Source of the DNA: Candidatus Doudnabacteria bacterium
GTDB lineage: Bacteria; Patescibacteriota; Doudnabacteria; UBA920
Reading direction: 5' to 3'
Assembly (NCBI GenBank): GCA_016218585.1
Contig: JACRDK010000031.1
Coordinates: 1,764 to 65,763 of the forward strand
Length of the DNA: 64,000 bases
In this document: positions 1,632 to 48,543 of the stretch, piece after piece
Numbering within the stretch: the stretch's first letter is position 1
How the letters are laid out: each line of letters begins with the position of its first letter
Made by a program: the position numbers and the translations under genes
Notes under the pieces: model-generated
The model's input: the letters and a program-made list of their open reading frames with translations, nothing else
Told to the model about the DNA's origin: nothing
The model's database searches: none

Positions 1632-4600
1632 CTATAATTTGGGAATTACTAAGTCAATACCAACCTTCATTGTTTTAGGATTTTTAATTTTATCGGTATT
1701 GGCTTCCAAGATTTTACGCCACATTTTACCTTCTCCATAATACTTTTTAGATATACTCCACAAAGTATCACCCTTCTTAACTTTATAAGTTGTTCCCGAC
1801 ACAGCCCCTAAAACAGCGCCACTGCCTCCCGGAGTCCAGTTTGTATCAAATTCCAAACCATTAAATGAGCTTACCCCCGCCTCTGTAAAGAAATCCTGAG
1901 CGGAAGAAAATGCTTTGCCGGTAATTTTGTTATAAATTGTTCCGTTAACATTGGCGTAAGTCCCGCTCATATCCCGATAATTTTCAGGCATTTGCAGTCC
2001 CCCGCTTTGCATCTGCAATCCTTGAACCAAACCGCCATCGGTTGTGCCAAAAGCATTTATGCCCCCGCCGGAATAAGTTGAAGAGCTTCGGGCCTGGGCT
2101 AATAAATTATTTAACTGTTGCACCTGGTTCTGAAGATTTGCTATTTGCGATGCGGAATTTGGATCAGTTACTACTACCGTATTTGTGGTTGTAGTCTTAT
2201 TGGCCAAAGCGGCATTTAAAGAATTAATTTGGCTTTGAAGCTGGCCTATCTGGTTTTGCAACTGGCTAACTAACAAGTCATTTGAGGACGACCCAGTTCC
2301 AGTTCCAGTTCCAGTTCCAGTTCCAGTTCCAGTTCCAGTTCCAGTTCCAGTTCCACTGTCGGCGTTTGAAGACGAACTTAATACAGCAAAACTTACCTGA
2401 TTTGAAGTCTTAGAAGAGTTATCTAGATTTTTTACTTGAATTTTGTAACTGCCAACGGTCAAACTAGTTGGCATAGTAAAAATCATTCCCTGGGCAGTTG
2501 AATAATCAGGCGCAATGGAAGCAACAACTTTACCTGAGCTATTTACAATCTCCACGGAATTTTTTTCCTTTGTTTCATTAAAATTATCTCCAACGATTGC
2601 CAATTGGTATCCTTGCGCTAATTGGGCGGTCGTTGCCGAAGTGCTGGAAAGCTGGGTAATTACTGGGACGCTTGCGGATACAACATCGCCATTGTCCGCA
2701 CCGGTAGTGCTAGCATCTGCCGCCAAAACTGTTATTGGCATTGCGTTAGAAAGCTTTCCAAAATTCGTTCCTATACCGACATACCTTAACCTAATATTAT
2801 ACTGGCCGGCTGACGTGCCGGAAGCCAAGGTTACAGTAGCTGTTCCTTGTACAATTTGTGTCGTTTGCAATGAAACCACGCTGCCGGAAGAATTTATTAA
2901 TTCTACAATAACACTTCCCGGTACTATTCCTTCTCCGGTAATTGTTACGCTGCCGCCGGCTTTTACTGTTGAGGACGATAATGAGGTAATAGACAGTTGA
3001 TAAACCTGAGTCCCGGCTGTTGTCCCGGTAGCTCCCCCTGTTGAACCGGTTCCGCCGTTAGCAGCCTGAATTTCCTGCAAAATCATATTTGCTGCGGTGT
3101 CAAAAGGATAAATAGTAAACAGGTTTGCCATAGCGCCCGCGTTACCCAAATAATTTCCCACTCTAATAGAATAAGAAGGCACCGGCTTACCGCTTGCATC
3201 AACCCAAGAATACGGGCCTTCCGAGGACAGACCTGCGTCTTCCACAGTTCCTCCAAAAATTTGCGCCAAAGCCTGGGCAGTTTCGAGCGTGGCAAAAGTT
3301 TTATTGTTAGCAACTTGTTTGGTCTTTGTTAAATTATCCAAAACGAAAACAGAAGGATAATAAGCCGGGGTAAACTCAACTTTAGTGTAAGTCGCTACAT
3401 AGCCATTGCCGGAACCCGTTTGTCCGCTGGCAATTCCGCCTCCAGGCACTGCTGCCGGGGCTTCTCCGTTCGCAACGGCAATTTCTTGCTTAACCATTGC
3501 TACTGCGGTATCGTACGGGTAAATAGTAAACAGCTGGGCAATAGCCCCTGCGTTTCCGTGGTAATTGCCAACTTGAATGTTGTAAGACACAACCATATTT
3601 TCTGTTGCCGGCGCCGTTTTACCGGAAGCAAGCTTAGAAATATTCACGTATTGGAATGGGCCATCGGCTGAGAGAGTATCAGCTACGACTGTTCCGCCAA
3701 ATATGCTAGCCATTTTTTGAGCAGTGGCTAAAGTTGCAAATTGTTTGTCATTAGCTTTGGTAAAAGTTTTATCAACTGAACTATAAACATATACCCCTGT
3801 CATCCAGGTAGAATTTGCATCTGTTACTCCGGCTTGCTCAGCGCCGGTTTGAACTAAGGTATTGCCAAAAATATCCGAGGTATAACCTTGTATGCTGCCA
3901 TCGGCATTTGAATACACTCCCAATGAGCCGTTATAATATCTGCCTGATCCGGTATCCTGCCAGCCGGCTTTTAATTTGCCGTCTGCGCCAATTGGCGCGG
4001 GAGCCAAACTTTTTGAAGGAGCAATAGGCGGCGTAACTACGCTTGTAGCCTTTGCAACAACATCAAAACTAAAATCACCGCCAACATTTTGTCCGTCAAC
4101 CGACAAATTTAATTGCCAATGCCCGATTTCCGAATCACCAACCTGCCTGCTAACCGTTAGGCTTCCGTCTGAAAGCACGGTCCCTAATACCACCTGGCCG
4201 GAGACAGGAGTTTGTCCATTTTGTGAAAAAACCGTATTTGCAACCACAGTAGCACCGGCTTTTGCTCCTGTAATTTTTATTGTCCAGGATTCTCCTGAAG
4301 TTAGAGTGCTTACAGCCTGGTTATTAGCATTTACAAAAACTGCTGTTGGAGAACTGGCCGAAACCGCAGTATTTTTTAATTTAGACGGGTCATTAAAAGC
4401 CGCGACTATTGCTTGAACATCAGCCGGAGAAAATTCGCCGGTAATATCCTGTCCCTGTTCATTATAAATTCTGCCGTCCGCGGTAACTGCTAAATTTCCA
4501 AGGCCATCAACATAAGAAGTTTTATATTCCGTAGTATTTGTAGTAGCAGCGACTAAATAAACTTCCAAATTATCCAAACTGCCCGGAGTTACAGACAAAT

Positions 4601-8494: not shown

Positions 8495-8550
8495 TTTGTT
8501 TCCAATAATATTCTACCCTTTTAAGTATATCATACTGACATAATCCCAAC

Positions 8551-8590
8551 ATCTTAGGTAAAAAACACGCCCGTATTTTTTACCTAAGAT
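8551..8590. terminator. 40-bp near-perfect palindrome (ATCTTAGGTAAAAAACACG…CGTATTTTTTACCTAAGAT) immediately 3' of the PaaX-like gene; shares a ~29-bp core with 9126-9154
   Basis: Read directly: the two arms are reverse complements with one mismatch. The core AAAACACGsCCGTrTTTTTTACCTAAGAT recurs at 9126-9154. Confidence 0.6.
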
Positions 8591-9117
8591 TATTTCAATC
8601 CAAATTTTTTCTTTAAATCCTTATCATAACCCAAATCATCAACCCTCATAATTCTGATAAACTCGGACAGTCCGGTTTTGTTTAAATATACAAGAGCTTC
8701 CCTATTCAAAGGATACGGACTAATATAAACACTGGCTTGTAATTTTTTATAGCCCATCTTTTTTAACATCCGCCTAAACATCGCTCTTTTTTCTTTACTA
8801 CCCTCTGGAATATCAAAAATTATTACCCTCCATTTGCCATCCCATTCTTTACTTACCATCACTTGAGATTTTAACAATAAAGCTTCCAACTGGCCTTTTT
8901 TTGTAAGCTTTATAAATTTTTTGTTTTTCTTCTTTCCAACAGTAATTAACCCGCGCTCTTTTAAATCAAACAGGCTGCTGTAATATCTTTTCTTAGTGTA
9001 GCTTCTCTGTCTTCTAACCCAGGAATAAGGATCTTCAAAAGGCAGAGGCAACAACTCGGACGCTTCCGATAAAAATTCTAAAATTAAATTTATTATTGTA
9101 TTTTCTTTTTTTGGCAT
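8590..9117 (-). CDS. PaaX-family-like transcriptional regulator (wHTH + PaaX_C/Cas2-like fold)
   Basis: C-terminal signature WDGKWRVIIFDIPEGSKEKRAMFRRMLKKMGYKKLQASVYISPYP matches the PaaX C-domain pattern (W.G.W…F.IPE…R…LRR.L…G…LQ.SV.). N-terminal winged-helix-like region. Confidence 0.6.
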   Translation of the reverse strand: MPKKENTIINLILEFLSEASELLPLPFEDPYSWVRRQRSYTKKRYYSSLFDLKERGLITVGKKKNKKFIKLTKKGQLEALLLKSQVMVSKEWDGKWRVIIFDIPEGSKEKRAMFRRMLKKMGYKKLQASVYISPYPLNREALVYLNKTGLSEFIRIMRVDDLGYDKDLKKKFGLK

Positions 9118-9125
9118 ATTGGTTT

Positions 9126-9154
9126 AAAACACGGCCGTGTTTTTTACCTAAGAT
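9126..9154. terminator. Palindromic hairpin (AAAACACGGCCGTGTTTT) + T-run between the glycerate-kinase and PaaX-like genes; second copy of the 8551-8590 element core
   Basis: Perfect 18-bp palindrome followed by TTTTTTACCTAAGAT. 27/29 nt are identical to 8562-8590. Confidence 0.6.
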
Positions 9155-9163
9155 GACAAGTTC

Positions 9164-21952: not shown

Positions 21953-22052
21953 AGAATTATTTCTCTCTATATATTATACCTCAAATACCAATTGACAGGC
22001 AACGGCTATTTATCGTATGATATTACGTAATCTGTTACCCAAGGAGGGCGAC

Positions 22053-22535
22053 ATGACTATCAGAGTTTGGCAAATGATTCCAATCCTCGCGCTCTGCGCC
22101 TGGCTGGGACGTGAGAACGAAAGCAACCAAGAAAAGGTAATCCTGGTAAGCTACTATGGCGACGCCACAGCCGCCAAGATGCAGCGCGAACTGGAGCTCC
22201 GGCTCAAACCCTTGGCCGCGGAAATTAAAAACAAATTCCGCAACCTCGGGCAGAGGCCGATCTCGGTTGAAATCTACCCATTACCGAAAACCAGCGGGGC
22301 CTACGTGGTCGAATACAGGTACAAAGGCCAACTTGCCGGCTATACGGTAGTGGAGATCGATCAAAACAACTTCGACCTCGCTCTGAAGCGAGCATCTCAA
22401 GATATCTCTTCTGGTATCAGGACCTTTATGCTCATACAAATACTTTGGGACCCCGACAGCCTGCGGGCTTGTCGGGGTTTCGCACGTCTGGGCACAAAAA
22501 AACCCGCACACTCCGGCGGGGGCAGTCTAAACTAA
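22053..22535 (+). CDS. Hypothetical protein, GC-rich ORFan (possible signal peptide)
   Basis: AGGAGG RBS sits 4 nt before the ATG at 22053. N-terminus is hydrophobic (MTIRVWQMIPILALCAWLG). Local GC is visibly higher than the flanking sequence. Confidence 0.45.
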   Translation: MTIRVWQMIPILALCAWLGRENESNQEKVILVSYYGDATAAKMQRELELRLKPLAAEIKNKFRNLGQRPISVEIYPLPKTSGAYVVEYRYKGQLAGYTVVEIDQNNFDLALKRASQDISSGIRTFMLIQILWDPDSLRACRGFARLGTKKPAHSGGGSLN

Positions 22536-22537
22536 AA

Positions 22538-22966
22538 TTATAAATAACTTTCTAACTTTTCAATCCAAGCTTCCGGAAGGCGGTTTTCGCGCGCGCCAAT
22601 AATCACTCTTTTTAAATAATCCTCTTTAACATAAGAGCCGCCAAACTGTTCAGGCTTTTCCAAATAAACCCATGTAATATATTTGTTGCCGCTGGCCCCG
22701 ACTTTGGAAACCTCTACTTCAATGCGGTTAAATACATTTGGATAGCCTTCAAAATCGTCTAAAATAGACAAGCGCTCTTCGTCTAATTCATACAACACGC
22801 CATAGACCTTATCCCCCGCAGACGGACGGATGTTGGCATACCCTCTCATATCCGGACCAAATTCATACCCTTCCAAAATGGCCGCGCCAAGCACGCGAAA
22901 ATGCCAGCCGCAAAGGCGGCGCATATGCTCTAAATTCATATTGGAACCGTATGCAAAATAGTACAT
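22538..22966 (-). CDS. Gamma-glutamylcyclotransferase (AIG2/GGCT-like)
   Basis: N-terminal YFAYGSNM motif. ~140-aa GGCT fold length. Confidence 0.85.
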   Translation of the reverse strand: MYYFAYGSNMNLEHMRRLCGWHFRVLGAAILEGYEFGPDMRGYANIRPSAGDKVYGVLYELDEERLSILDDFEGYPNVFNRIEVEVSKVGASGNKYITWVYLEKPEQFGGSYVKEDYLKRVIIGARENRLPEAWIEKLESYL

Positions 22967-23020
22967 GATATTTAATTGTATTAAAAAACCGCCCGGCGCG
23001 CAAGAGCCGCGGGTAAAAAT

Positions 23021-24661
23021 TTATGACTTTTTTATGTGCGCCATGGCATATTCCAAACTGGCGCCGACTTTTTTGCCCGGATTAAAAATATTTTGCGGAT
23101 CAAAAATTTCTTTTACTTCCTTAAATAAGGCGGTTATTTCCGAACCATACATTTTTTCCAAATATGGGCTGCGAATTAAGCCGTCGTTGTGCTCGGCGGT
23201 TATACTCCCTTTATATTTTAAAACTAAATCATAAACCTTATCCGCAAGTTTCGGAATTATCATCCGCTGGTCGGCGCGGCTTAAATCCATAAGCGGGATT
23301 ATATGAAAATTAGCATCACCCATATGTCCGGCTATTGTGTAAATAAGCGAAGGATATTTAGCCAAAATAGCATTTAATTCCGGCAAAAACTGCGGCAATT
23401 GCGCCGGATGCACCACAATGTCGTCTATAAAAGGCGCGGTTGAAAGGCCTTTGCTGTGCTGCCGCAACAAATTAAAACTTTCCCGGCGAATAATCCAATA
23501 TTTTTCCGCTTCCTGCGGGCTCTGTGTAATATGGGTTTTTAAGCGGAATTTGCTTTGAATTTCCTTTTCCGCCATAAATAATTTTTGATAAATTTCCGTT
23601 TCTGTCTCCCCGGTAAATTCAGCAATTAAAATTAATTTTGGCACGCCGCCGGTTAAAGTCATCCATAACTCCGGCAAAAATTTTAAACCCAAGGAAATAA
23701 GGCCGCCTTTCATTCGCTTTATCATATCCGGCAAAAAACGCATAGCCAATTTAAAAGTATGGTCGTCAAAACTCTCAAAGCTTTCCGGCTTGTAGGCGGC
23801 AATGCAGTCTATTATCTCCCCCAATTTTTGCATATCTTTCAAAAAAATAACCAGCAACTCGCTTTTTGGCTTCGGCTTAACCAAGCGAAACTTAATTTTG
23901 GTAACAAGCCCCAAAGTTCCCTGCGAGCCGGTAATTAACTTAGCAAGATTAAAACGGCTTTTGTTCCAAATTTCCCATAACAAATATCCGGCCGAATTTT
24001 TGCTGGTTGTCGGCTTGGCTTTTTGAATTAAATCGTAATGGTCTTTTACCAAGCGGAAAGTTTTTCGGTAAATTTCTCCTTCAAACCCGGGCAATTTAAG
24101 CTTGCTTTCCAGCTCCCTGTCGTCCAAGTCCTTAAAAACATACTCATTACCGTCGGACAAAATAACATTAAGCTCTTCCACATAATCCTTGGTCTGCCCA
24201 TATGCCAAAGATTTTTCTCCGGCGGAATTATTCCCCACCATTCCGCCTAAAGTGTTTAAACTTTTAGACGCGGTATAACAGGGCAAAATTAGCCCCCGTT
24301 CCAGTGACATTTTTTCAAAGTCGCGGTAATAAACTCCGGGCTCGGCCACGGAAAAATTTTTGCCGAACATCTCTACGCGGTTAAAGTGCGCCGGAAAGTC
24401 GGCTAAAATGGAATTATTAATAGCTCCGCCGGACATATCGGTTCCGGCAGAACGCGCTGTTATAGATAATCCGGGATTAGCTGCCTTATTTTGGCTAACC
24501 CATTTCACCAAGGCTTTTACATCCGCCACGTCTTTTGGCTTAACCACGCAGGCCGGCATAATTTCAAAAATACTGGCATCGCGGCTGTAGCTATGCAGCG
24601 TAGCCTCGTCAGTTAAAACTTCGCCTTTAAATTGTTTTTTTATTTCATTAAAATCTACCAT
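23021..24661 (-). CDS. FAD-binding oxidoreductase (FAD-linked oxidase, GlcD/D-lactate dehydrogenase-like)
   Basis: FAD_binding_4-type N-terminal region (VVKPKDVADVKALVKWVSQNK…ITARSAGTDMSGGAI). 546 aa with C-terminal FAD-oxidase_C-like half. Confidence 0.8.
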   Translation of the reverse strand: MVDFNEIKKQFKGEVLTDEATLHSYSRDASIFEIMPACVVKPKDVADVKALVKWVSQNKAANPGLSITARSAGTDMSGGAINNSILADFPAHFNRVEMFGKNFSVAEPGVYYRDFEKMSLERGLILPCYTASKSLNTLGGMVGNNSAGEKSLAYGQTKDYVEELNVILSDGNEYVFKDLDDRELESKLKLPGFEGEIYRKTFRLVKDHYDLIQKAKPTTSKNSAGYLLWEIWNKSRFNLAKLITGSQGTLGLVTKIKFRLVKPKPKSELLVIFLKDMQKLGEIIDCIAAYKPESFESFDDHTFKLAMRFLPDMIKRMKGGLISLGLKFLPELWMTLTGGVPKLILIAEFTGETETEIYQKLFMAEKEIQSKFRLKTHITQSPQEAEKYWIIRRESFNLLRQHSKGLSTAPFIDDIVVHPAQLPQFLPELNAILAKYPSLIYTIAGHMGDANFHIIPLMDLSRADQRMIIPKLADKVYDLVLKYKGSITAEHNDGLIRSPYLEKMYGSEITALFKEVKEIFDPQNIFNPGKKVGASLEYAMAHIKKS

Positions 24662-24807
24662 GAATGAATTATAGCAAACTTTTTTCTTTTTGTTTTTATG
24701 CCTCCCCTCCTGGCAAGAGGGGTCGAAACTATTTGTTTATGATAACCCTGATAAATCAGTAAAAATTTGGCGTCATCCTGACCCCGAGTCAGACGAGGGG
24801 AAGGATC

Positions 24808-25092
24808 TCAAAAGCTTAAAGACAAGTCTCTCCAATCGGGATTAAGACTATTAATTAAATTAATTTTTTTCTGCCTGACCCATCCTTTAATCTTTTTTTC
24901 TTCCGCTATTGCCTCTGGCGCTGTTCCAAGCTCTTTATAATAAACCAATTTCGTCACATTATATTTCGAAGTAAAACCTTTCACCAGCTTATTTTTATGC
25001 TGATAACTTCTATTAACTATATTGTTTGTCACCCCGGTGTATAACACAGTGTGACTTTTATTCGTCATAATATAAACAAAAAATGACTTCAT
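24808..25092 (-). CDS. GIY-YIG nuclease-domain protein (stand-alone URI domain)
   Basis: FFVYIMTNKSHTVLYTGVTNNIVNRSYQHK motif (GIY…YIG…R…H). 94 aa. Confidence 0.85.
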   Translation of the reverse strand: MKSFFVYIMTNKSHTVLYTGVTNNIVNRSYQHKNKLVKGFTSKYNVTKLVYYKELGTAPEAIAEEKKIKGWVRQKKINLINSLNPDWRDLSLSF

Positions 25093-25214
25093 GGTGTTAA
25101 AATAGATTCTTCAGGCCTAAAGGCCTTCAGAATGACGCCAAACAAAGATGTCTTTTCGGTGTTATTTGTAGCGTTCGCCTGCCTGCCGGTAGGCACGGAT
25201 TATAATGCTTCGTA

Positions 25215-25928
25215 TTATATCAGCCTAATATCCCTTAACTCATATATTACGTCTTTTCTTTCCGCGATTACCGTCCAGGCTTTCTTTTTTGCCATTTTTG
25301 CCAATTCTAAATTAGGGTTAAACGCAATCGGCATGCCAACCAGCTCAAGCATAACAATATCGCTTTCGGTATCCCCTACGGCCAAAGATTGTTTTAAATC
25401 CGCGGAAAATGCTTTTGCCAAATTTTTTACAATTTTAGCCTTATTTAAAGCTGAGTCTAAATTTTTAACCTTGCCGGTAAAAATTCCGTTTAAAACTTCC
25501 AGCTCAGTGCCAAAAAATACATCAAACCCAATAGTTTGCGCATACTCTTTTACTATATATGACGGTGAGCCGGAAACCGCGGCTAAAATATAGCCTTGTT
25601 TTTTGAGCCTTTTAATTAAATCTCTGGTATACCTATAAGTGCGGTCCTTTTGAAAAGCAATTACCCGCTTGGCTACATTGTCCACCGCCTTAAACTTTTT
25701 CCCGGCAATATATTTAACATAAATTTTTACAACTTTATTTATGTAAGCCTCGTAAGTGCCTCTGCGGTCTAGCCAAGCCAAATACTCTTTGGCAATTTGC
25801 TGCCTGGCGGCCATTGGAAAAATACCCGCGTCCACCAGCGCGTGGCTTAACTCAATTACTAAAGAAGAGCGAAAAATGGTTCCGTCAATGTCAAAAAAAG
25901 CTATTTTCTTTTTTGTCTTATTTTTCAT
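25215..25928 (-). CDS. HAD-superfamily hydrolase (HAD-IB, phosphoserine-phosphatase-like)
   Basis: Motif I FFDIDGTIF and motif IV …VGDTESDIVMLE. Start set at MKNKTKKK. Confidence 0.8.
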   Translation of the reverse strand: MKNKTKKKIAFFDIDGTIFRSSLVIELSHALVDAGIFPMAARQQIAKEYLAWLDRRGTYEAYINKVVKIYVKYIAGKKFKAVDNVAKRVIAFQKDRTYRYTRDLIKRLKKQGYILAAVSGSPSYIVKEYAQTIGFDVFFGTELEVLNGIFTGKVKNLDSALNKAKIVKNLAKAFSADLKQSLAVGDTESDIVMLELVGMPIAFNPNLELAKMAKKKAWTVIAERKDVIYELRDIRLI

Positions 25929-26316
25929 AAATCCGCTCCATTTCTGCAATGTTAAATTTTTCTAAAATCGCTTCTGCTTGTTTTTTTATAAACCCAATAC
26001 CGCTTTTTCCCGAAAGCTCCCTGGCTTTTTCCATATCCGCCATTAGGCCTTTTACCCAGGCAACACAGTGTGAATAGTCGCCGCCATGCTTTACTAAAAA
26101 ATTTTGTAAAATAAGAGCTTTCCCGTACATATCATTAAGCACGGCTTTTTCCGGCCCGCTTAATTGCCTATTATTCAATCCATGGGTCCACAAGGCCTCT
26201 AAATGATCGCTAAACTCCCTAAAACCTGATGTGCTGAAACCATTACCAAAAACCATTGCTTCCGGCTCGTCCTTTATTTCCCGAGCAGGAAAATCTCTTT
26301 TATAATGTTCTGCCAT
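25918..26316 (-). CDS. Hypothetical protein (132 aa)
   Basis: ORF with host-like composition and no recognised motif. Overlaps the HAD gene start by ~10 nt. Confidence 0.45.
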   Translation of the reverse strand: MAEHYKRDFPAREIKDEPEAMVFGNGFSTSGFREFSDHLEALWTHGLNNRQLSGPEKAVLNDMYGKALILQNFLVKHGGDYSHCVAWVKGLMADMEKARELSGKSGIGFIKKQAEAILEKFNIAEMERIYEK

Positions 26317-26426
26317 AAAATTGGTACTTATAAATAATGGTAGTTTGCCGATTTATCGGCCCATAAATGGTCGAACTACACATCAGTAAACATATTTATT
26401 ATAAACCCCTTTGAGCAAAAGAAAAA

Positions 26427-26456
26427 GGCGCCGACAACCGGGTCGACGCCTTTTTT
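26427..26456. terminator. Bidirectional rho-independent terminator hairpin (GGCGCCGAC-AACCGG-GTCGACGCC + T6, preceded by A5)
   Basis: 9-bp GC-rich stem with one mismatch, flanked by A-run and T-run. Lies downstream of the minus-strand ORF that ends at 26503. Confidence 0.65.
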
Positions 26457-26502
26457 GATGTTATCCTGCTGCCGACTTCGAATCTCGGCAAGAGGATCGT
26501 AG

Positions 26503-26895
26503 CTAACGGAACAGGGTTCGGCTGGGCGGTCCCAGAGCGCGGGCTCCTGCAGCCATGCTTTGGTTGCTAGCAGCAATAGCCGCAGCCGCAGCGCGATGTT
26601 CGCCTGGACTGGGGACCGCCCTTTCGGCCGTTCCTGGCCAGGCGTGAGCCTGATGAATTGTCTGTACAGGATCGACCGCTGAGAAACGGTACATCGTGAC
26701 AACTGCGATGGCGATCATTGCAGCCCCAGCTACGATCGCCAGAAAGCGATCAATGTGGGTACCATAATGCCAGGCAATCCAAGCAAACCGGCCGCCAACA
26801 ATGGTGACCAGCGCGAGCCCGAAGGTGTACGATTGGTTTCTGATCTCTTTGTTTTCCCAGAAACGAAATATGACACTCTTCAAATTCAACTGCAT
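26503..26895 (-). CDS. Hypothetical small membrane protein encoded in a high-GC islet
   Basis: Two predicted TM helices (TFGLALVTIVGGRFAWIAW; FLAIVAGAAMIAIAVVTMY) and an Ala-rich C-terminus. Own terminator at 26427-26456. GC is much higher than the host average. Overlapping ORF 26376-26702 is considered spurious. Confidence 0.35.
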   Translation of the reverse strand: MQLNLKSVIFRFWENKEIRNQSYTFGLALVTIVGGRFAWIAWHYGTHIDRFLAIVAGAAMIAIAVVTMYRFSAVDPVQTIHQAHAWPGTAERAVPSPGEHRAAAAAIAASNQSMAAGARALGPPSRTLFR

Positions 26896-27069
26896 CTTTC
26901 CACTCCTTCTGACTTGTTCTTACCCCTTAAACTTTCAGGGTAAAGTATATAAAAGATACTATAACGGAAAAGTCTTGTCAATACAAAAATCCTTAGTTTC
27001 AATATTGAAACTAAGGATTTTATCTATATTCTAAATGCAATATGCTAAATTCTAAATGCTCCCCGTCCC

Positions 27070-27792
27070 CTACTTCATTGAAAACCCGGCTTTAACTGTT
27101 ACCATTACTTCTTTGTCTATTTTAGAAGTGTCATATTGTCCATAATCGGAAACATCCACGGAATTTGGCGCCAAGACCTGGACTACGCCCATAGATGCGG
27201 AGCGCAAAGAGCCAACGCTTTGTCCGCTGCTTTTGGCAATATTGTCCGCGCGCACTTGCGCGTCTTTTACGGCATCGGAAAGCAGTTCAACTCTTAAGTC
27301 CGGCAACTTGCTGTAATAATATTCCACTCCCTGGGTGGCAAACACAACTCCCTGATTAATGAGCTGATCGGTTTTCTTAGAAAGTTCCGTAACTTTTTCT
27401 ACATCAGCAGACTGCACTTCCACTGTTTGCCTTAAAATATATTGCTTGTCCGCGTTAGGATAATTTTGCCTGTCGTAAAGCCCCGGTTGCTCCATATACA
27501 CGGGGGAAATATTTATATCGCTGTCTTTTAATCCCTGGCCAACTAAAAATTTCTTAACCAATTCTGTGTCTTGAGCCATTTGGCTGTATCCGCCTTTTAA
27601 ATTGCCGTCAAAAATGGTTCGGCTAAAGCCTGCCGTCCACTTTACCTGGTCAGAGGTTACTTTGCGCTTGGCTGAACCTGTTACAGACAAAATATTGTCC
27701 AAGCTTTTTGCTTTATAAAATGCGCCCGCGCCAATGGCAGATGCAATAATTATTCCTAAGGCCAAAATTGCCGCACCCTTTGAATTTTCCAT
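27070..27792 (-). CDS. SIMPL-domain protein (DUF541, BP26/OMP28-like periplasmic protein)
   Basis: N-terminal TM/signal, then SIMPL-type sequence (…LRQTVEVQSADVEKVTELSKKTDQL…GVVQVL…). 240 aa. Confidence 0.7.
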   Translation of the reverse strand: MENSKGAAILALGIIIASAIGAGAFYKAKSLDNILSVTGSAKRKVTSDQVKWTAGFSRTIFDGNLKGGYSQMAQDTELVKKFLVGQGLKDSDINISPVYMEQPGLYDRQNYPNADKQYILRQTVEVQSADVEKVTELSKKTDQLINQGVVFATQGVEYYYSKLPDLRVELLSDAVKDAQVRADNIAKSSGQSVGSLRSASMGVVQVLAPNSVDVSDYGQYDTSKIDKEVMVTVKAGFSMK

Positions 27793-28066
27793 ATTTTTAT
27801 TTAATTATTTATGTTTCTACCCTTAATTCTTAATACATGATTCTTAATTCTTAATTCATGCTACACAATAATACCTTAATTATAACAAAAAGTAACAATT
27901 CTCTCTATACATTATCCTTGTATCCTTATATCCTTATCTAACCATTTGACAACTTTTTCCCCCAGGAGTAGAATCTTTTTATGCAAATCTGTAGGAGGAT
28001 TTCTAGGCTTCATGCCTTTAAGTCAGCCTATGGCTTCTGTGTAGAAGACACACCACTGGAGTTCGA

Positions 28067-28474
28067 ATGATTCTCAAAATCAATCTCCCCCTGGCGCTTG
28101 CTCTTCTGACCACCTGTGTGGCGTTTGCTGGCCCCCCACCTCCGGGCTCAAAGAACGTTAATGCAGCCATGGTCTATGTCGAAACGGCGACGTGTGACAA
28201 CGGCAGCGCACTGATCATCATCAGTGAGGAAAAAGCCGGCGCGATCAACGTCAACGAAGCGGCGATTCGTGTCGCCAACAACACCACGGTCGTCGGCGCG
28301 TCTGCCAACATCGTGGGAAGATCCGACAGTGGAAACGTAGCGACCAATGTTGCGGCGATCCCCAACAACGGCACTAACGCCACTGTGGCGGGCAACAGCC
28401 CAACCGGCGTGGCTCGTAGCGGCCCCTCCAATGCCGCTGCGGACGCGGTCGAGGAAGTATACCTCGGCGATTGA
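28067..28474 (+). CDS. Hypothetical secreted protein, GC-rich ORFan (Ala/Asn/Val-rich)
   Basis: Signal peptide MILKINLPLALALLTTCVAFAG, then PPPPGS. About 57% GC in 28201-28260 versus ~32-42% in flanking host genes. Confidence 0.5.
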   Translation: MILKINLPLALALLTTCVAFAGPPPPGSKNVNAAMVYVETATCDNGSALIIISEEKAGAINVNEAAIRVANNTTVVGASANIVGRSDSGNVATNVAAIPNNGTNATVAGNSPTGVARSGPSNAAADAVEEVYLGD

Positions 28475-28721
28475 CTTTCCCTCCGACATCTTGTCGGGGG
28501 CGCTCAACAACGGTAGCTAACTTTCCCCTCAGCACTTCGCTGAGGGAACATGAAACCTAACCACGTGTCTGCGGCCAACCGCAAACACTTAACGGACATA
28601 ACGTCTCCAAAGGGCCGGCAAGCGCACAATGCGTCTGCCGGCTCTTCACATTTTTAGCAAAATTTTTTGACAAATCTCTCAAATTTATATAAGGTTGCTT
28701 TATCTAGCCAAGGAGGCATAG

Positions 28722-29258
28722 ATGAAACTTGCAACTCTCGCATTACTTTCTACCTCTTTGGCCTTTGGCCAATGGGTGGCAACGAGGCCGCCATCGTATG
28801 TAAGACTTGTGCCGGATGATTATTTTCTTTCCTCCCGGCAAACCACTGAGACTCTGGTCTCAGTTCCGACAATCAAACGCTCTCTTTTCGCTTTTAGCCG
28901 CGACTATGAGCGAACGGACAACGAACCACTGGTCTTCTTGGGACCGGAGGCCGCCCAATTGCAACTGGAAGTGCTAAAAAGAAACTGGCACCCCATAGAT
29001 GGCAACATCTGGCGGCAACTTAGTCATGTCTTTAAGGAAGGCTTTGCCAACTTGGGCGCATTAAATGCCGCCACGGTCTACTACCGGCAATATGGCCTCG
29101 CAACCACCCCTTCGCCGCATGACCCAATGGCCATGCGGAACTACGAGCGCGAGCACGATGTTATCCGCAGGCTGTACGGACCAATCCTCAAGTCTTTAAA
29201 AGGCTCAGCCGGAGCCCAGCTCCGGCACGACCTGCGAAAATTGTTGACGTTGAAGTAA
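28722..29258 (+). CDS. Hypothetical secreted protein, GC-rich ORFan
   Basis: Signal peptide MKLATLALLSTSLAFGQ. High GC. Followed by a terminator hairpin at 29267-29303. Confidence 0.5.
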   Translation: MKLATLALLSTSLAFGQWVATRPPSYVRLVPDDYFLSSRQTTETLVSVPTIKRSLFAFSRDYERTDNEPLVFLGPEAAQLQLEVLKRNWHPIDGNIWRQLSHVFKEGFANLGALNAATVYYRQYGLATTPSPHDPMAMRNYEREHDVIRRLYGPILKSLKGSAGAQLRHDLRKLLTLK

Positions 29259-29266
29259 TGCAAAAA

Positions 29267-29310
29267 CGCCGTCCCGCCCTTTGATAAAAAGAGCGGGACG
29301 GCGAATTTGT
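29267..29310 (+). terminator. Terminator-like hairpin CGCCGTCCCGC…GCGGGACGGCG after the 28722-29258 gene
   Basis: Perfect 11-bp GC-rich inverted repeat with a 15-nt loop, then an AT-rich tail. Confidence 0.55.
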
Positions 29311-35228: not shown

Positions 35229-36752
35229 TTATTTTCTATGGCCAGCTTGCTTTCTTCTTAGCATAAAATAATTTAGCCAGCCAAAAATTGCAAAAATAAA
35301 CAGGATTGCAATAATAATATTTTCAATAGTAAGTAAGCCGGAAACAAGGGACATTACACCGGCAATTCTGGTCAAGTATGTTTGTTTAACATTTATAATA
35401 ATACGGGCCGACTTTAAATCCGCTACTTCTGCCCACATAACATAGGAACCCAAGGCGGCTATTGGCTCGCTGCGGAAAGAAAAATTACCAAGTTCGTCCG
35501 ATTTCACCACATAAGCCCGGCTAATGCCATCCTCGGTTGTTAATAAAATATTTACTTTTGAATTAGCCGGAGCTTGTCCTTGAGCTTTAATCCTGCCCCC
35601 TTCTTTAATCTCCGCGGAATAATCCTTAATTGCCAAAACCGCTTGTTGTTTAAACTCAATATTGGCTTTGGCGGATGCAAGGTTGCCCGCAAAATCATAG
35701 GCTTCAACTTCCACCAAGTGCATTCCGGAAGAAATGCCTTCCGATAAAATTGAGGCGGAACCGTCTTTAGCCGGAATTTTTATAGCTTCTTGGCCGTCAA
35801 TTTTTACTAAAAAGTAATCAATGCCTGAAAGAGCGTCGTGAGCTGAAATTATCGGCAAGGTCTTGCTGTCACCTTGATTAATTGCCAAACTTTCCGGCGC
35901 CGCGGTATCCACTTGCACTTTATAAGCGGCTGTTTTTGTCCAAGCCCCATTAACTAAAAATCTGGAGTTAAAATACCAGGTACCGTCTTTAATATCTTCA
36001 ACGGCAATAGTGCTCACAGCCGGCTTGCGCAACACCCTGGGCACCGACAACGCTGTGCTGTCAAAGGAAGTTTGGCTGGCGCTTGTCCCCGGCGGCAGCT
36101 TCCACGAAAATATTGCCTTGGTTTGATTGTACCATTTGTTGCTATCCGGATGAGTGGCGGAATAAACCGCGGCTTGCGGCTGGAACTGCGCGCTGGCAGC
36201 GGGAGTGATATTTTTATTTTCCGCATTCTGGTCTCCTGCCTTATTCTCAGGGACAGGGGTATCTTTGGCTTGAACTAAAATAAACTGCGCCTGGCCTTTA
36301 GCTTGCAGCAGCTCGGTCCCTAAACCGTCATTTGCCAATACAGAACCGGAAGAAAAATAAATAGACGCCGACCCTGAAGCTTTAGCGCGAAAGGAAATAG
36401 TTAAAGCCGCGCCCGAAGCTCCGGCGTAGCCGGGAGTTGGAAGGCCGCCGTTAAAAGAAACCGTGCCGGCCTGGTTGGAAAAAGCGGGCTCTTCTACCCA
36501 CAAAGAAAAAATTGACCCGGACTTTGACAGCGAAACCACTTCCAGTAAATCAGTTGGAAAATTAATTACAGCCTGGGAATTATTTATGGGCCTGTTATCT
36601 GTATTTATTAACACCTGAACATTTACTATATTACCGACGGAGACTTCCTTGGTGCTGGGCGAAAAATACAAAGAAGCGGCCTTAGCCGAACCTACGTTCA
36701 GCACAAGGAAGAATAGAGCGGCAATAAATGCTAAAAGAAACTTTTTTTTCAT
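35229..36752 (-). CDS. Cohesin-like domain surface protein with C-terminal TM anchor (paralog of 36755-37675)
   Basis: Signal peptide + cohesin-like beta-sandwich segment (LYFSPSTKEVSVGNIVNVQVLINTDNRPINNSQAVINFPTDLLEVVSLSKSGSIFSLWVEEP…). C-terminal TM + RRKQAGHRK. Start set at MKKKFLL. Confidence 0.55.
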   Translation of the reverse strand: MKKKFLLAFIAALFFLVLNVGSAKAASLYFSPSTKEVSVGNIVNVQVLINTDNRPINNSQAVINFPTDLLEVVSLSKSGSIFSLWVEEPAFSNQAGTVSFNGGLPTPGYAGASGAALTISFRAKASGSASIYFSSGSVLANDGLGTELLQAKGQAQFILVQAKDTPVPENKAGDQNAENKNITPAASAQFQPQAAVYSATHPDSNKWYNQTKAIFSWKLPPGTSASQTSFDSTALSVPRVLRKPAVSTIAVEDIKDGTWYFNSRFLVNGAWTKTAAYKVQVDTAAPESLAINQGDSKTLPIISAHDALSGIDYFLVKIDGQEAIKIPAKDGSASILSEGISSGMHLVEVEAYDFAGNLASAKANIEFKQQAVLAIKDYSAEIKEGGRIKAQGQAPANSKVNILLTTEDGISRAYVVKSDELGNFSFRSEPIAALGSYVMWAEVADLKSARIIINVKQTYLTRIAGVMSLVSGLLTIENIIIAILFIFAIFGWLNYFMLRRKQAGHRK

Positions 36753-36754
36753 GA

Positions 36755-37675
36755 TTAAGCTTTGGAACTTTTTTTCTTTTTGTATTTTATAAAGGTTACT
36801 CCTATTAACAACAAAGATAAAACAATAACAATAAATTGCCAAAGCCCAAAAGATTTTGCTTTTAACTTGGCCGGATCAACAACAATTACGCTGGTATTTC
36901 CGGCTTTGTCAAAAGCCGCAATTTTAACCTGCGACTTCAAAGACTGGTCTTTTAACACGTAAGGGCTTTCACTATTTATTGCCGGCAAATCGCCTTCCTG
37001 AACCTGAAAATAATTTACTCCGGAAGATTGGTCCGCGGATGAAAAACTCAAAAAATATTTGCCGCCAAACATGGAAGAATCCCGTCCCAACGCAACATTT
37101 AAGTTTTCCGGGGGCGTTTTATCGCTAGCTAAAATTTTTGTCCACGCATCGCTTGCCGCCGGCTGTTTCAAACCGGCATTTATGGTAATTTGTTTTGACG
37201 CGGTCGTTAACGTTTCTTTTGTGCCTTTGCCGTCGGCCAGGTAGGCTGAGGAGTCTGGGGAAATATTTATTTCCGCATCTCCTGAAGATTTAGCTAAAAA
37301 GACAATGCTGAGTATTTTACCGTTGCCGCTATTTTGCGTCGTTCCGCCGGTAAAAAATATTTTTCCGCTGTCGTTTGAATACACCGGCGTCCTGGTCCAA
37401 AGATTAAACACAGACCCGCCGGTACTTATATCCCGAACTTCCAATTTACTCGCGTCAAAATTTACCATTCCGTCAACAACATTAATTTTTTCTCCCGCGC
37501 TGTCCAGCCTTAACTCAACCAAAAATTCGTCTCCCGCGTTAAACTCGCGATTTTCTGCAGACAAGGTCAAATTCGCTGCTTCCGCCGCAACAGGCATTAC
37601 AAGCATCATCAACAGAGCAACTATTAAATTTTTATACTTTTGTCCCATATTCATTGTTATTTTTTTGCGGTCCAA
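36755..37675 (-). CDS. Cohesin-like domain surface protein with C-terminal TM anchor
   Basis: Same architecture and clear paralogy (LTLSAENREFNAGDEFLVELRLDSAGEKINVVDGMVNFDASKLEVRDISTGGSVFNLWTRTP…). C-terminal TM LWQFIVIVLSLLLIGVTFI + KYKKKKSSKA. Confidence 0.55.
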   Translation of the reverse strand: MDRKKITMNMGQKYKNLIVALLMMLVMPVAAEAANLTLSAENREFNAGDEFLVELRLDSAGEKINVVDGMVNFDASKLEVRDISTGGSVFNLWTRTPVYSNDSGKIFFTGGTTQNSGNGKILSIVFLAKSSGDAEINISPDSSAYLADGKGTKETLTTASKQITINAGLKQPAASDAWTKILASDKTPPENLNVALGRDSSMFGGKYFLSFSSADQSSGVNYFQVQEGDLPAINSESPYVLKDQSLKSQVKIAAFDKAGNTSVIVVDPAKLKAKSFGLWQFIVIVLSLLLIGVTFIKYKKKKSSKA

Positions 37676-40530
37676 TTATATAACAAAATAGAAAAATCTA
37701 TGGCGTCCACTTTACCGTCTCCGTTAATGTCAACTTTTGGATTGGCAAAAGGCGGCTTAGTTTTCCAATAATAAAGCAAAATAGAAAAATCCACTGCATC
37801 AACTCTGCCATCCTGATTAATATCTGCGGAAAAAATCTTACCTGTGTCTGGATTGGTAGAAGTGGCTGGTGCAGTATATCCTCCACCGCCGCCCCCACCA
37901 CCTCCGCCGGATGGCGGAGTAACAACTGGTTGAGAAGTCGCGGTAAAACTGCGTGAAGCGCCGGATGAATCGGAACCAAAGTAAACAACCAACTTAAAAT
38001 AATAATTCCCGGGGGTCGAAACAGTTGCGGTTAAAGACGTGTCCCAATTCTCTCCGGGCAAAATAAATTTAGCCGCCGAAGCATAAAACACATCATTGCC
38101 GCCGCCGCAGGAATTATTTACTTGGGAAACCACGCACCATTCATAGGTATATTCATAGCCGCTGCTGCCTTCGTTGGTTATGGTTATATTAGCGCTTATA
38201 TCCGGCGTTTGAGTCTGGTTAACCTCACGAATAATTACCTGAGCCGGCGCTCCTTTAACTTCCCAATAATCGGTATTTTCGCTAAACCTGCCATTCTCTA
38301 CTTGCGTGGACACAATTGTTTCCCATGCGCCTTGTGTTGCGCCGCTGGCAACACTATAAACGTACTCGTAAACACCAGTGCTTAAGCGGGTCATGGCCAC
38401 GGCTGAAACAACAACATTTCTGTCGGCATCATAGAGCGTAATTTGCGGCGCGGAATACGGATCGCTTGCGGAATTTGAATTATAAATATAATATTTTACC
38501 CGGTAAGATTTCCCGGTCATAATTGATCCGGTTTCCGACAAAGTTGTAATCCACGCGCCCTGCTGTCCGGTAATTATTCTGCTGCCGTTATTCCACACCG
38601 AACTAGCCACGGTTGAAGTTGATATTCCGGCCACCTGCGCCCCAACGCTTCCGGCTGTGGTAAGAGAAGAAGTCATTACATTCCACACGTCAGCGGCAGT
38701 AATATTGTTGCCGTAGTTTGTGAGTGTTCTGCTGCCATTGCTCCAAACAGCGCTGGCTAAAGAGGAGGTTGAATAATCGGACAACGTTCTGCTAGCCGAA
38801 AGCCAAACATCGGCCGCGGTCAAACTGGAGGTTCCTCGTGAAGAAATGGTTGCGTCTAAATTGTCGGCAATAGTTTTGCCAATGCTGCCGGAAGATGTAA
38901 GGCTGGACTTAGCCACATTCCAAATCGCTAAAGTAGAAGAAGCGGTCAAATCAACCGTGCCTCCCCCGGCGGAAGTTAAAGTCCTGGCACCGTAAGCCCA
39001 AACATCGCTTGCGGAAATATTATTTAAATTATTTATTAGAGTCCTGTTAGCTAAAACTTCGGTAATTATTGAAGATGTAGCATTGTTTACATCTGACTGA
39101 GTAGCTAATGACCCGCCGGAGGTTAATGTCTGGTCGGTTAGCCTCCTCGTGGATGCAAATGTATTATTCCAGACATCGGCAGCCAAAGAGCCAAAGGCGG
39201 TTAACGTGCGGGATCCGCTGGACCACACGGCCGTGGCAATATCCGAAACCAGCGTGCCAAATGATGTTAAAGTCCTTGAAGGAGACAGCCAAATCGCTGA
39301 AGCTATAGACGATGTTGCATAATCTGTTAACGTTCTGCTAGAAGACAACCACACGGCAGAAGCAACGGTTGATGTCGAGACTCCCGCCACTTGAGAACCT
39401 ACGCTCCCGGCGGTTGTAAGGGAAGAAGTTAAAACGTTCCATACATCCGCGGCGGTAATGTCATTTCCATAATTAGTTAACGTTCTGCTGCCCTGGTTCC
39501 AGACCGCAGCGGCAACAGACGAAGTAGCATAATCGGACAAGGTTCTGGAAGCAGACAGCCAAACATCGGCCGCGGTTAAATTAGACGTGCCTCGGGAAGA
39601 AATGTTTGCATTTAAGTTATCAACTAAATGTTTGCCTACTGAACCTAAAGTGGTCAGTGAAGAGCTGGCTACATTCCAAACCTGGCTAGGGTTAGACAAG
39701 GTTACATCTTTAGTGCCATAAGCCCAAACATCGCTTGCGGAAATATTATTTAAATTATTTATTAGAGTCCTGTTAGCTAAAACTTCGGCAACAATTGTAG
39801 ACGTTGCGTTGTCAACATCTGCTTTGGTAGCCAAAGAGCCGCCGCTCTCCAATGTTTGGTCTGTAAGTCTTCTGCTTGGAGCAAAAGTATTATTCCAAAC
39901 ATCGGCCGCTAAAGAGCCAAATGCCGTTAAAGTGCGGCTGCCGCTGGACCAAACGGCCGTTGTAATATCCGAAACCAGTGAACCGAAAGAAGTGAGGGTT
40001 CTTGAGGGAGACAGCCAAACTGCCGTGGCAATGGATGTGGTGCCATAATCAGTTAAACTTCGGGAATTAGAATTCCAAATATCCCCTGCCACCGATGTGG
40101 CGGAGGTCAGCGTTCTGTTGCTGCTATTCCAAACTGAATCGGCTATGGCTGAGTTGTCAACTGTGGTGCTGGAAGCAATTATAAAAGTTTTATTTTCTTT
40201 AATTAAATCTCCGTTAACCTGGCTGCCGCAAGAAATAAAAGTTGGCCAGGTTCCTAAAGTTGTGGAAGCGGTAAATGAATAATAATGCCAACCACTTGCG
40301 TCGCTGGACATTGTCGCAGCATTTATATCCACTGCTCCTGCAGGGGACATAACCGTAAGCGTACAAGGGGTAGTGGTCGGCTGCATATTGTCATCATACA
40401 CAAATTCGCCCAGGGTCACGGATGACCCAGGGGCAAATTGGTCATAAGCAGCCGCGGCTTTAAATGGTCCGGCGGCTGCAAATAACGCAAACAGAACACT
40501 AAAAATCAAAATTAGGCGACCTTGTTTCAT
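37657..40530 (-). CDS. 957-aa secreted repeat protein with C-terminal type-I dockerin pair and poly-Gly linker
   Basis: Signal peptide. About 20 repeats of a ~24-aa unit (…A.AVW.S.SRTLT.YG…). G10 linker. C-terminal DINQDGRVDAVDFSILLYYW…DINGDGKVDAIDFSILLYNW matches two dockerin Ca-binding segments. Confidence 0.8.
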   Translation of the reverse strand: MKQGRLILIFSVLFALFAAAGPFKAAAAYDQFAPGSSVTLGEFVYDDNMQPTTTPCTLTVMSPAGAVDINAATMSSDASGWHYYSFTASTTLGTWPTFISCGSQVNGDLIKENKTFIIASSTTVDNSAIADSVWNSSNRTLTSATSVAGDIWNSNSRSLTDYGTTSIATAVWLSPSRTLTSFGSLVSDITTAVWSSGSRTLTAFGSLAADVWNNTFAPSRRLTDQTLESGGSLATKADVDNATSTIVAEVLANRTLINNLNNISASDVWAYGTKDVTLSNPSQVWNVASSSLTTLGSVGKHLVDNLNANISSRGTSNLTAADVWLSASRTLSDYATSSVAAAVWNQGSRTLTNYGNDITAADVWNVLTSSLTTAGSVGSQVAGVSTSTVASAVWLSSSRTLTDYATSSIASAIWLSPSRTLTSFGTLVSDIATAVWSSGSRTLTAFGSLAADVWNNTFASTRRLTDQTLTSGGSLATQSDVNNATSSIITEVLANRTLINNLNNISASDVWAYGARTLTSAGGGTVDLTASSTLAIWNVAKSSLTSSGSIGKTIADNLDATISSRGTSSLTAADVWLSASRTLSDYSTSSLASAVWSNGSRTLTNYGNNITAADVWNVMTSSLTTAGSVGAQVAGISTSTVASSVWNNGSRIITGQQGAWITTLSETGSIMTGKSYRVKYYIYNSNSASDPYSAPQITLYDADRNVVVSAVAMTRLSTGVYEYVYSVASGATQGAWETIVSTQVENGRFSENTDYWEVKGAPAQVIIREVNQTQTPDISANITITNEGSSGYEYTYEWCVVSQVNNSCGGGNDVFYASAAKFILPGENWDTSLTATVSTPGNYYFKLVVYFGSDSSGASRSFTATSQPVVTPPSGGGGGGGGGGYTAPATSTNPDTGKIFSADINQDGRVDAVDFSILLYYWKTKPPFANPKVDINGDGKVDAIDFSILLYNWTAKK

Positions 40531-48395: not shown

Positions 48396-48543
48396 TTTGT
48401 TTCAATTAAAACAAATATAGCTTTATTATACCCTACCCCATAGCTTAAATCCAACGCTTTCCTCTTGAACAATTATGCTTAATATGTTAGAGTAAACCAT
48501 TCCCCACGCCTCTTTTGAGGCGAAAATTTTAAGGAGTGTAGAA

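Follow-up and report, generated by a model that had tools for sequence, protein, structure and literature searches.

We analyzed a 64-kb stretch of DNA, in the following called the window, from a 137,608-bp contig of a metagenome-assembled genome of Candidatus Doudnabacteria, a groundwater bacterium of the Candidate Phyla Radiation (CPR, Patescibacteria). Eight small open reading frames (ORFs), here named A, B, C, D, E, F1, F2 and F3, differ sharply in codon usage from the other genes of the window and form six predicted transcription units at five loci, which we call islets. The units are located in intergenic gaps between native, mostly co-oriented genes. On balance, and with somewhat better than even confidence, we consider the islets to be accessory units that resemble morons and come from a gene pool subject to lateral exchange. 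We base this reading on the bimodal distribution of codon usage, the autonomy signals of the units, their near-random orientation, the orphan status and functional heterogeneity of their products, the absence of A from four relatives and the presence of a CheW-domain gene in an islet of a relative. No earlier description of these islets was found in the literature.

Composition and anatomy of the islets

We compared the eight islet ORFs with a reference set of 49 native genes of the window. An initial annotation of this DNA had described GC-rich patches with small ORFs at the five loci, with a GC content of 55–60% in a genome of 35–42% GC. All five loci are indeed outliers by the codon measures given below; the GC ranges had to be revised to 49–59% for the islet ORFs and to about 42–43% for the genome. 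The GC content of the window is 43.1%, with a standard deviation of 6.3% between 200-nt windows. The strongest patches are located at 26401–26850 (56.9%), 28001–28650 (57.2%) and 28751–29300 (53.5%). Patches at 22.0, 48.6 and 61–62.5 kb reach 52–55% and do not rise above patches within ordinary genes (53.8% at 36001–36500). By raw GC alone the claimed deviation thus holds only for 26.4–26.9 and 28.0–29.3 kb, which surpass the interiors of ordinary genes. Two spot values had also been given: 57% at 28201–28260 was reproduced (56.7%), and for 8881–8940 we obtained 30% instead of 32%.

Synonymous codon usage separates the two classes. The GC content at third codon positions (GC3) is 0.417±0.044 in the 49 native genes (maximum 0.493) and 0.51–0.68 in the islet ORFs (z +2.1 to +6.0). 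Under a model of native codon usage the synonymous-codon log-likelihood of the islet ORFs lies at z −4.4 to −6.4; F1, with 54 aa, has too few codons for this score. The fraction of NTC among NTC and NTT codons (N, any nucleotide; hereafter NTC fraction) is 0.11±0.05 in the 49 native genes, counted on both strands (maximum 0.235), as compared to 0.52–0.73 in the seven longer islet ORFs and 2/6 in F1 when read in its minus-strand frame. This distribution is bimodal, and no other real gene of the window is intermediate between the two classes. Native genes use ATC for 4% of Ile, CTC for 3% of Leu, TTC for 9% of Phe and GTC for 9% of Val codons, and NAC codons are likewise disfavoured. On the level of dinucleotides, TC and GA are depleted on both strands of native DNA (rho 0.75 and 0.62) in contrast to the islets (1.02 and 0.94). 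The shift in the islets mostly concerns the choice of C versus T after A or T at codon position 2, together with a change from TTA to CTN for Leu. The choice of Ala, Gly and Pro codons is equal in both classes, and the islets still favour CAA, GAA and AAA. GC3, codon usage and dinucleotides of the islets all deviate from the resident genome; atypical composition of this kind is taken as a sign of horizontal acquisition in arguments of the Lawrence-Ochman/Karlin type.

A blind scan of non-overlapping ORFs of at least 50 aa for this signature returned exactly the five named loci plus two tiny spurious ORFs, and the list of loci is therefore complete for the window. Most islet ORFs show the periodicity GC3>GC1>GC2. 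Strand-asymmetric mutation was considered as a cause of the codon signature and rejected, since native plus-strand genes avoid NTC as well (0.154). A trend towards NTC avoidance is also visible in the native-type genes of seven related loci (L003–L009; 0.15–0.30), and could be due to context-dependent mutation or to a decoding constraint.

The features of the six units are as follows.

21992–22021, plus strand: promoter of A, TTGACA-18-TATGAT, 11/12 consensus positions, from a consensus scan
22042–22048, plus strand: Shine-Dalgarno sequence of A, AAGGAGG, from the sequence
22053–22535, plus strand: ORF A, orphan of 160 aa with N-terminal hydrophobic segment; GC3 0.63, NTC 19/26
26422–26455, minus strand: intrinsic terminator of B, 14-bp stem and T-run
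26503–26895, minus strand: ORF B, 130 aa, two hydrophobic helices and Ala-rich tail; GC 56%, NTC 14/24
26953–26981, minus strand: promoter of B, TTGACA-17-TATCTT, from a consensus scan
27946–27974, plus strand: promoter of C, TTGACA-17-TAGAAT, 11/12, conserved in L003
27981–28066, plus strand: 5' leader of C, 86 nt, with Shine-Dalgarno-like AGGAGGA at 27996–28002; first ~25 nt conserved with L003
28067–28474, plus strand: ORF C, 135 aa; GC 59%, GC3 0.68, NTC 17/24
28475–28655, plus strand: 3' untranslated region (UTR) of C, ~180 nt, highly structured, terminator-like hairpin at about 28610–28646
28667–28695, plus strand: promoter of D, TTGACA-17-TAAGGT, followed by TGCT and the Shine-Dalgarno sequence AAGGAGG
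28722–29258, plus strand: ORF D, 178 aa, member of a rare protein family, signal-peptide-like N-terminus and helical C-terminal half; GC3 0.59, NTC 14/27
29267–29303, no strand assigned: terminator of D, 16-bp hairpin, which also faces the convergent RibD_C gene
48465–48493, plus strand: promoter-like site of E, TTGAAC-17-TAGAGT, putative, read from the sequence
48544–49020, plus strand: ORF E, cytoplasmic-looking orphan of 158 aa; GC 53%, NTC 18/33; spanned by Logan contig L046
49042–49079, no strand assigned: hairpin terminator of E with A-run, 11-bp GC-rich stem and T-run, from the sequence
60976–61007, minus strand: terminator of F1
61028–61192, minus strand: ORF F1, 54 aa, acidic and Pro-rich, with Shine-Dalgarno sequence GGGAGGG; gene call on Logan contig L045
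61237–61265, minus strand: promoter of F1, TTGTCT-17-TATAAT
61268–61296, plus strand: promoter of the F2-F3 operon, TTGACA-17-TAGAGT
61336–61386, plus strand: copy 1 of a 51-nt repeat, hairpin without U-tract, in the 5' UTR of F2
61423–62172, plus strand: ORF F2, orphan of 249 aa; GC3 0.60, NTC 26/49
62190–62495, plus strand: ORF F3, 101 aa, about three hydrophobic helices; NTC 15/29
62569–62619, plus strand: copy 2 of the 51-nt repeat, 86% identical to copy 1; hairpin with U-tract, terminator of F2-F3

According to consensus scans and reading of the sequence, every unit consists of a predicted sigma-70-like promoter, a Shine-Dalgarno sequence (in E, TAAGGAG ahead of a TTG start; also present in B) and one or two small ORFs. 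The best promoter matches within 21.5–30 kb are those of A, C and B. A clear hairpin terminator follows in five of the six units. The exception is A, whose 3' end passes through the terminator of the convergent GGACT gene and has no clean terminator of its own, so that the claim of a terminator for each applies to the other five units. Three hairpin terminators proposed near 26427–26456, 29267–29303 and 60966–61004 were recovered at 26422–26455 (minus strand), 29267–29303 and 60976–61007 (minus strand). A small ORF previously placed on the plus strand at 60.96–61.24 kb is in fact F1 on the minus strand, in agreement with the gene call on the independent assembly. The units are 0.5–1.7 kb in size and make up about 7% of the window DNA.

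Six of the eight islet ORFs are located on the minority strand as compared to 6 of the 49 native genes (Fisher test, p = 6e-4). Such a distribution agrees with insertion in random orientation, but not with native genes of high expression.

We also assessed the continuity of the assembly, a check that had been recommended in order to exclude a chimera. Both junctions of every islet are crossed by contigs of an independent assembly (Logan, run SRR12113407; contigs L001, L002, L044, L045 and L046), with L044 spanning A and L002 spanning B. At the level of the assembly the islets are therefore not chimeric.

The eight islet proteins are mutually unrelated. By exact-sequence look-up they correspond to entries within MBI5530959 to MBI5530995, all of them annotated as hypothetical. 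A crude hydropathy scan gave plausible N-terminal signal-peptide-like segments for A, C and D, in agreement with the signal peptides previously suggested at 22053, 28067 and 28722. B and F3 look membrane-embedded, and E, F1 and F2 look cytoplasmic; by this measure three of the eight products would be exported and two membrane-bound. Searches of Pfam, NCBIfam, PHROG and PADLOC assigned no family to the islet proteins apart from a weak match of F2, whose C-terminal ~70 aa resemble the C-terminal domain of the RNA polymerase alpha subunit (alpha-CTD). The earlier statement that the ORFs lack recognisable domains thus holds for most of them, with a reservation for F2. A single-sequence structure model of F2 was uninformative (pLDDT 35).

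Most of the products are orphans. A and F2 had only self matches among 5.8 billion protein clusters. The six islet proteins present in the collection form singleton 90% clusters, including B, except that the cluster of A holds two variants of its start site; the sequences tried for C and F1 gave no entry there. A tblastn search with all eight proteins gave no match in 50,697 phage or 72,556 plasmid records, and a blastn search of the C-D region DNA gave none against the plasmids.

Some further observations concern single units. The window lacks tRNA genes. No Rfam family reaches its gathering score there; the matches below it resemble terminators. One of these, to ctRNA_p42d at 26415–26455 on the minus strand (33 bits versus a gathering score of 50), falls on the terminator of B and is most likely a mere resemblance to a terminator. 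The 51-nt sequences form a direct-repeat pair that brackets the F2-F3 operon, with a U-tract only at the 3' copy. They are the only repeat found at the border of an islet, and could be an insertion target that was duplicated, or could stabilise the two ends of the mRNA.

Islet units in related genomes

For comparison we used the seven Doudnabacteria loci L003–L009, which carry a block of HAD, FAD oxidase, GGACT, MazE-like and acylphosphatase genes. Homologues of A, B, C and D were not detected in these relatives by tblastn. The relatives have ORFs of the islet class of their own, with GC3 of 0.60–0.71 and NTC fractions of 0.55–0.68 versus 0.15–0.30 for their other genes, nearly all of them on the strand opposite to the conserved genes. 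The units of the relatives are thus of the same class but not the same as those of the window, and in two cases they occupy corresponding genomic positions. One islet of L008, rich in GC and NTC, contains a gene with a CheW domain (1142–1633, minus strand; Pfam 1.4e-27), and this looks like a real lateral transfer. In bacteria of the CPR type one would not expect an adaptor protein of chemotaxis.

The first of these positions is that of A. The gap between the GGACT and MazE-like genes measures 95–217 bp in L003, L004, L005 and L007, as compared to 585 bp, including A, in the window. A is therefore lineage-specific at this junction, and it is the only islet gene for which absence from the orthologous position in relatives was found. 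In L008 the same slot holds two orphan ORFs of the islet composition class; A shows no similarity to the L008 ORF in this slot.

The second position is that of C. Four relatives have a C-like gene that matches C in orientation and in its side of the HAD-FAD-oxidase block, and that encodes a signal peptide followed by an Ala/Thr/Asn-rich low-complexity protein. C itself likewise encodes a signal peptide, and its mature product is of low complexity and rich in Ala, Asn, Val and Gly. In the closest relative, L003 (FAD oxidase 81% identical), the promoter and the start of the leader can be aligned with those of C (ATTTGACAACTTT...GTAGAATCyTTTTATGC...TCTGTAGGAGGA). The signal peptides of C and of its counterparts in L003 and L006 are significantly similar (z 2.9–5.7 versus shuffled sequences). 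The mature parts cannot be aligned (42% nucleotide identity between window and L003, z ≤ 2.3), at a divergence at which neighbouring genes of the window and L003 are 37–81% identical at the protein level. Since promoter, leader and signal peptide are shared with relatives, C is an old, positionally conserved locus and not a recent one-off acquisition. Judging from these alignments, its payload appears to be hypervariable or replaced.

The 3' UTR of C folds into four hairpins between 28520 and 28660 (−58.6 kcal/mol, z = −8.1 versus shuffles) and may act as a stabiliser or as the source of a 3'-UTR-derived small RNA; long 3' hairpins were also observed behind the C-like genes of relatives. A 29-codon upstream ORF within 27981–28070 starts at about the predicted transcription start of C, and its TGA overlaps with the ATG of C (ATGA). 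This upstream ORF is not conserved in L003.

A homology search of the ORFans, which had been advised earlier, left most of them as orphans and recovered eight relatives of D (exhaustive HMMER search of 1.84 billion representatives). Seven of these are full-length proteins of ~190 aa with the same N-terminal signal-like segment and 29–43% identity, and one is a 79%-identical fragment. Between D and its closest relative, on contig L037, the ratio of nonsynonymous to synonymous divergence (dN/dS) is 0.11 with dS of about 1.1, and we therefore regard D as a real protein under purifying selection. An AlphaFold model of D is moderately confident (pLDDT 62.6), with a helical C-terminal half; neither Foldseek nor a profile search against the PDB gave a structural match. 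No relatives of D were detected in IMG/VR, and scans with D, with the distant family member P0016 and with the promoter motif of D returned chance matches only.

The genes of the D type are found in unrelated contexts, next to adenylosuccinate lyase (ASL) and GIY-YIG genes, next to DinB, near a cytochrome-o oxidase (cyo) operon and, in the window, between C and RibD_C. They occur there as promoter-ORF-terminator units. In all six contexts observed the gene (49–54% GC, GC3 0.53–0.65) is GC-richer than its flanks (33–45% GC). The promoter and leader of the family (TTGACA-17-TAWKGT, (T)TGCT, CCAAGGAGG, ATGAAA) accompany the gene and are better conserved than the protein. The terminators of D and of the L037 gene differ by 1 mismatch in about 55 nt despite near-saturated synonymous sites, and the similarity ends just beyond.

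Two side observations touch on this family. The stem motif of the D terminator (TCCCGCCCTTTG..AAAGAGCGGG) also closes the C-like locus of L003 (7378–7403, minus strand), which lacks a D gene. In the cyo context one contig variant, L048, has a transposase gene of the IS30 family (429–1433, minus strand) directly upstream of the D-like gene; L047, which is identical downstream, has another left neighbour.

Origin of the islets

If the islets belong to a laterally exchanged pool, each unit would have been added ready-made between native genes in the manner of a moron. Its own promoter would make its transcription independent of the operons next to it, and its own terminator would insulate it. As export or a place in the membrane is predicted for five of the eight products, a likely effect would be the remodelling of the cell envelope or the secretome. 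The other three products look cytoplasmic, and one of them may contact DNA or RNA polymerase through its alpha-CTD-like domain.

We regard the islets as a variant of known small, laterally acquired islets or morons. An attached life on other cells is assumed for CPR bacteria, whose genomes are tiny and whose lifestyle genes are mostly unknown orphans. Phage morons are described by Cumby, Davidson & Maxwell (2012; PMC3594210) as independent transcription units added between genes. The islets share with them the own promoter and, apart from A, the own terminator, the one or two small ORFs of accessory or unknown type, a composition unlike that of the neighbours and the insertion between otherwise conserved adjacent genes; the D family, moreover, appears to spread as a whole unit. 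Unlike morons they are not located in a prophage and have no PHROG, phage or IMG/VR matches. They lie between cellular genes (FAD oxidase, HAD, GGACT, SIMPL, RibD_C, ABC transporter, ArsR) of a CPR chromosome.

With horizontally acquired genomic islets they have in common the atypical GC3, codons and dinucleotides, the patchy occurrence in relatives and the orphan genes. They differ by their very small size, by the lack of an integrase, a tRNA and direct-repeat borders except for the one 51-nt pair, and by orphans whose GC content exceeds that of the host, in contrast to the AT-richer ORFans usual in bacteria. In addition, the composition of the C type and of D persists across hosts and, for D, across saturated synonymous divergence, without amelioration. 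A similar case of GC-rich putative alien genes in an AT-rich genome is reported for Lawsonia intracellularis (PMC2671203).

Gene cassettes of integrons, or of clusters of attC sites lacking an integron integrase (CALINs), resemble the islets as small, mostly orphan and often mutually unrelated ORFs that are each followed by an imperfect palindrome. The islets differ from them in having their own promoters, in hairpins that are U-tract terminators without R''/R' cores (as judged by eye), in the lack of an integrase (intI) and in units that are dispersed singly and not arrayed.

Several results weigh against lateral acquisition. Synteny evidence of an insertion is limited to A; for B, D, E and F the searches gave no syntenic relatives. 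C is no simple insertion, as it has counterparts that share its promoter and leader (L003) or its signal peptide (L003 and L006). No donor and no vehicle were detected, and closest homologues in a different lineage, as expected for horizontal islets, were not found. Neither an integrase nor a transposase nor phage genes were detected among the window ORFs scanned, and a tRNA gene, another hallmark of mobility, is missing from the window. D-type genes exceed their flanks in GC in all six contexts, and no compositionally matching 'home' genome was seen. Moreover, both D and the L037 gene are GC3-rich at a dS of ~1.1, so that the atypical composition persists rather than fades; a plain recent transfer predicts the opposite.

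The main rival explanation is that the islets are native, long-resident genes for secreted or surface proteins, very highly expressed and fast-evolving, in which selection keeps C-ending 'weak' codons and a higher GC content; this could act via translation efficiency or mRNA stability. We give it a real but clearly minor share of probability. It would account for the near-consensus promoters, the strong Shine-Dalgarno sequences and the structured leaders and 3' UTRs. The codon shift, which mainly concerns NTY and NAY codons (Y, pyrimidine) and leaves Ala, Gly and Pro as well as CAA, GAA and AAA as they are, also speaks for it, as a shift centred on NTY and NAY resembles the classical optimal-codon pattern. 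The same holds for the C-type locus, with its promoter, leader and signal peptide kept in relatives, and for the GC excess of the D family in 6/6 hosts despite a dS of about 1.1 and purifying selection. However, the distribution of codon usage is sharply bimodal, without intermediate genes. Six of the eight ORFs are on the minority strand, whereas genes with strong expression normally point in the direction of replication. Four relatives lack A, and CheW and several cytoplasmic orphans carry the same signature. Furthermore, slow-growing organisms with tiny genomes are not expected to show strong translational selection. Among the Doudnabacteria loci examined we found no EF-Tu, S12, GroEL or other marker of high expression; the sole match was a different GTPase (L041). 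If the units are native and highly expressed, our finding reduces to an ordinary codon-bias effect.

The initial annotation had favoured repeated recent transfers from a high-GC donor, possibly the host of an episymbiont, which would deliver secreted effectors. We consider this improbable. The foreign composition of the islets, the three signal-peptide-like N-termini and the CheW gene in the islet of a relative would agree with it. In contrast, for no islet gene was a homologue detected in any high-GC context, nor was a high-GC host found for any of them, and all contigs of the D family have flanks of 33–45% GC. Neither does the codon pattern resemble that of a high-GC genome, as CAA is preferred to CAG and GAA to GAG, AAA is likewise preferred and the choice of Ala, Gly and Pro codons is unchanged. 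The promoter and signal peptide of C are common to relatives, and three of the products are cytoplasmic according to hydropathy. What can be retained of this proposal are the foreign composition, the autonomy of the units, the insertion of A relative to four relatives and the CheW islet of a relative; C does not fit as a one-off event.

A still smaller probability is assigned by us to targeted diversification at a fixed expression slot, especially of the C type, in which a diversity-generating retroelement (DGR), or gene conversion with silent cassettes as donors, would rewrite the payload. DGRs are known to abound in CPR bacteria. C resembles DGR targets and expression sites of the antigenic-variation type in that a conserved promoter, leader and signal peptide are followed by a low-complexity region that cannot be aligned, and its payload is rich in Asn (AAC). 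Unlike such systems, the 64 kb contain no silent cassettes, no reverse transcriptase among the window ORFs scanned and no copy of any islet that resembles a template repeat. A DGR was rejected as far as the window is concerned, with neither a reverse transcriptase domain nor a pair of variable and template repeats in it. Moreover, diversification accounts for C only and not for A, B, E or F.

Finally, we practically discount that the islets arose by chimeric assembly with reads of some GC-richer organism, or that they are GC-rich genes for structured RNAs, which often form the GC-rich patches of AT-rich genomes and would suit the strongly structured 3' UTR of C, because an independent assembler joins both flanks of every islet, no tRNA or Rfam family was found, D has full-length homologues and evolves under purifying selection, and Shine-Dalgarno sequences as well as codon periodicity in most ORFs point to translation.

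Returning to accessory units from a lateral pool, three traits are unusual: orphans that are GC-richer than the host, a composition that does not fade in two families, and a slot with conserved promoter and signal peptide but variable payload. It is puzzling that the atypical composition of two families does not ameliorate but is retained from host to host. One tentative and rather doubtful generalisation is that Doudnabacteria, and perhaps other low-GC bacteria, share tiny phage-independent 'plug-in' units. Their GC- and NTC-rich composition would be actively maintained in every host, even at saturated synonymous sites, and their regulatory DNA (promoter, leader and terminator) would be constrained more tightly than the protein. 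Some of them would reside in fixed slots for expression and export, such as the promoter and signal peptide of the C type, with swapped or hypervariable payload. If true, such a pool would be a dedicated system for fast change of the secreted or surface repertoire of an episymbiont. In practical terms, the use of NTC codons is a simple marker by which the flexible gene pool of these genomes could be recognised from sequence, and the D family and the C-type slot provide candidate surface or secreted factors of episymbiont-like bacteria.

Gene neighbourhood in the window

The islets are flanked by ordinary cellular genes, mainly on the minus strand. Near the first islets these comprise NUDIX, MazE-like, GGACT, FAD-linked oxidase, GIY-YIG, HAD, SIMPL, RibD_C, TspO and trehalose-synthesis genes. 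The rest of the window encodes pilin-like proteins, TatC, an ABC transporter, ArsR, glutaredoxin and several giant surface-type proteins.

Between B and C, a SIMPL/DUF541 gene (27070–27792) has native composition and no synteny in relatives. Its nearest metagenomic homologues are located on contigs of 32%, 42% and 64% GC, and a metagenome scan anchored on SIMPL gave homologues without synteny. This whole stretch thus looks like a breakpoint of synteny. Between FAD oxidase and HAD there is a small gene for a GIY-YIG nuclease (24808–25092; 32% GC). It is missing at this junction in L003, where the gap measures 103 bp, and a homologue adjoins D-like genes on two other contigs (2369–2620 on L035, and L036). 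Another gene of low GC content (32.8%; 8590–9117, minus strand) encodes a product with a PaaX_M/Cas2-like domain and is flanked by 35-nt inverted repeats (8550–8584 and 9121–9155) that are 89% complementary.

Furthermore, we noticed four very large ORFs, at 1632–7358 (1908 aa), 37657–40530 (957 aa), 42416–45235 (939 aa) and 52804–59874 (2356 aa), which probably encode surface proteins. The 957-aa ORF contains internal repeats of 726–756 nt, and a (CCAGTT)n tract is present at 2293–2358.

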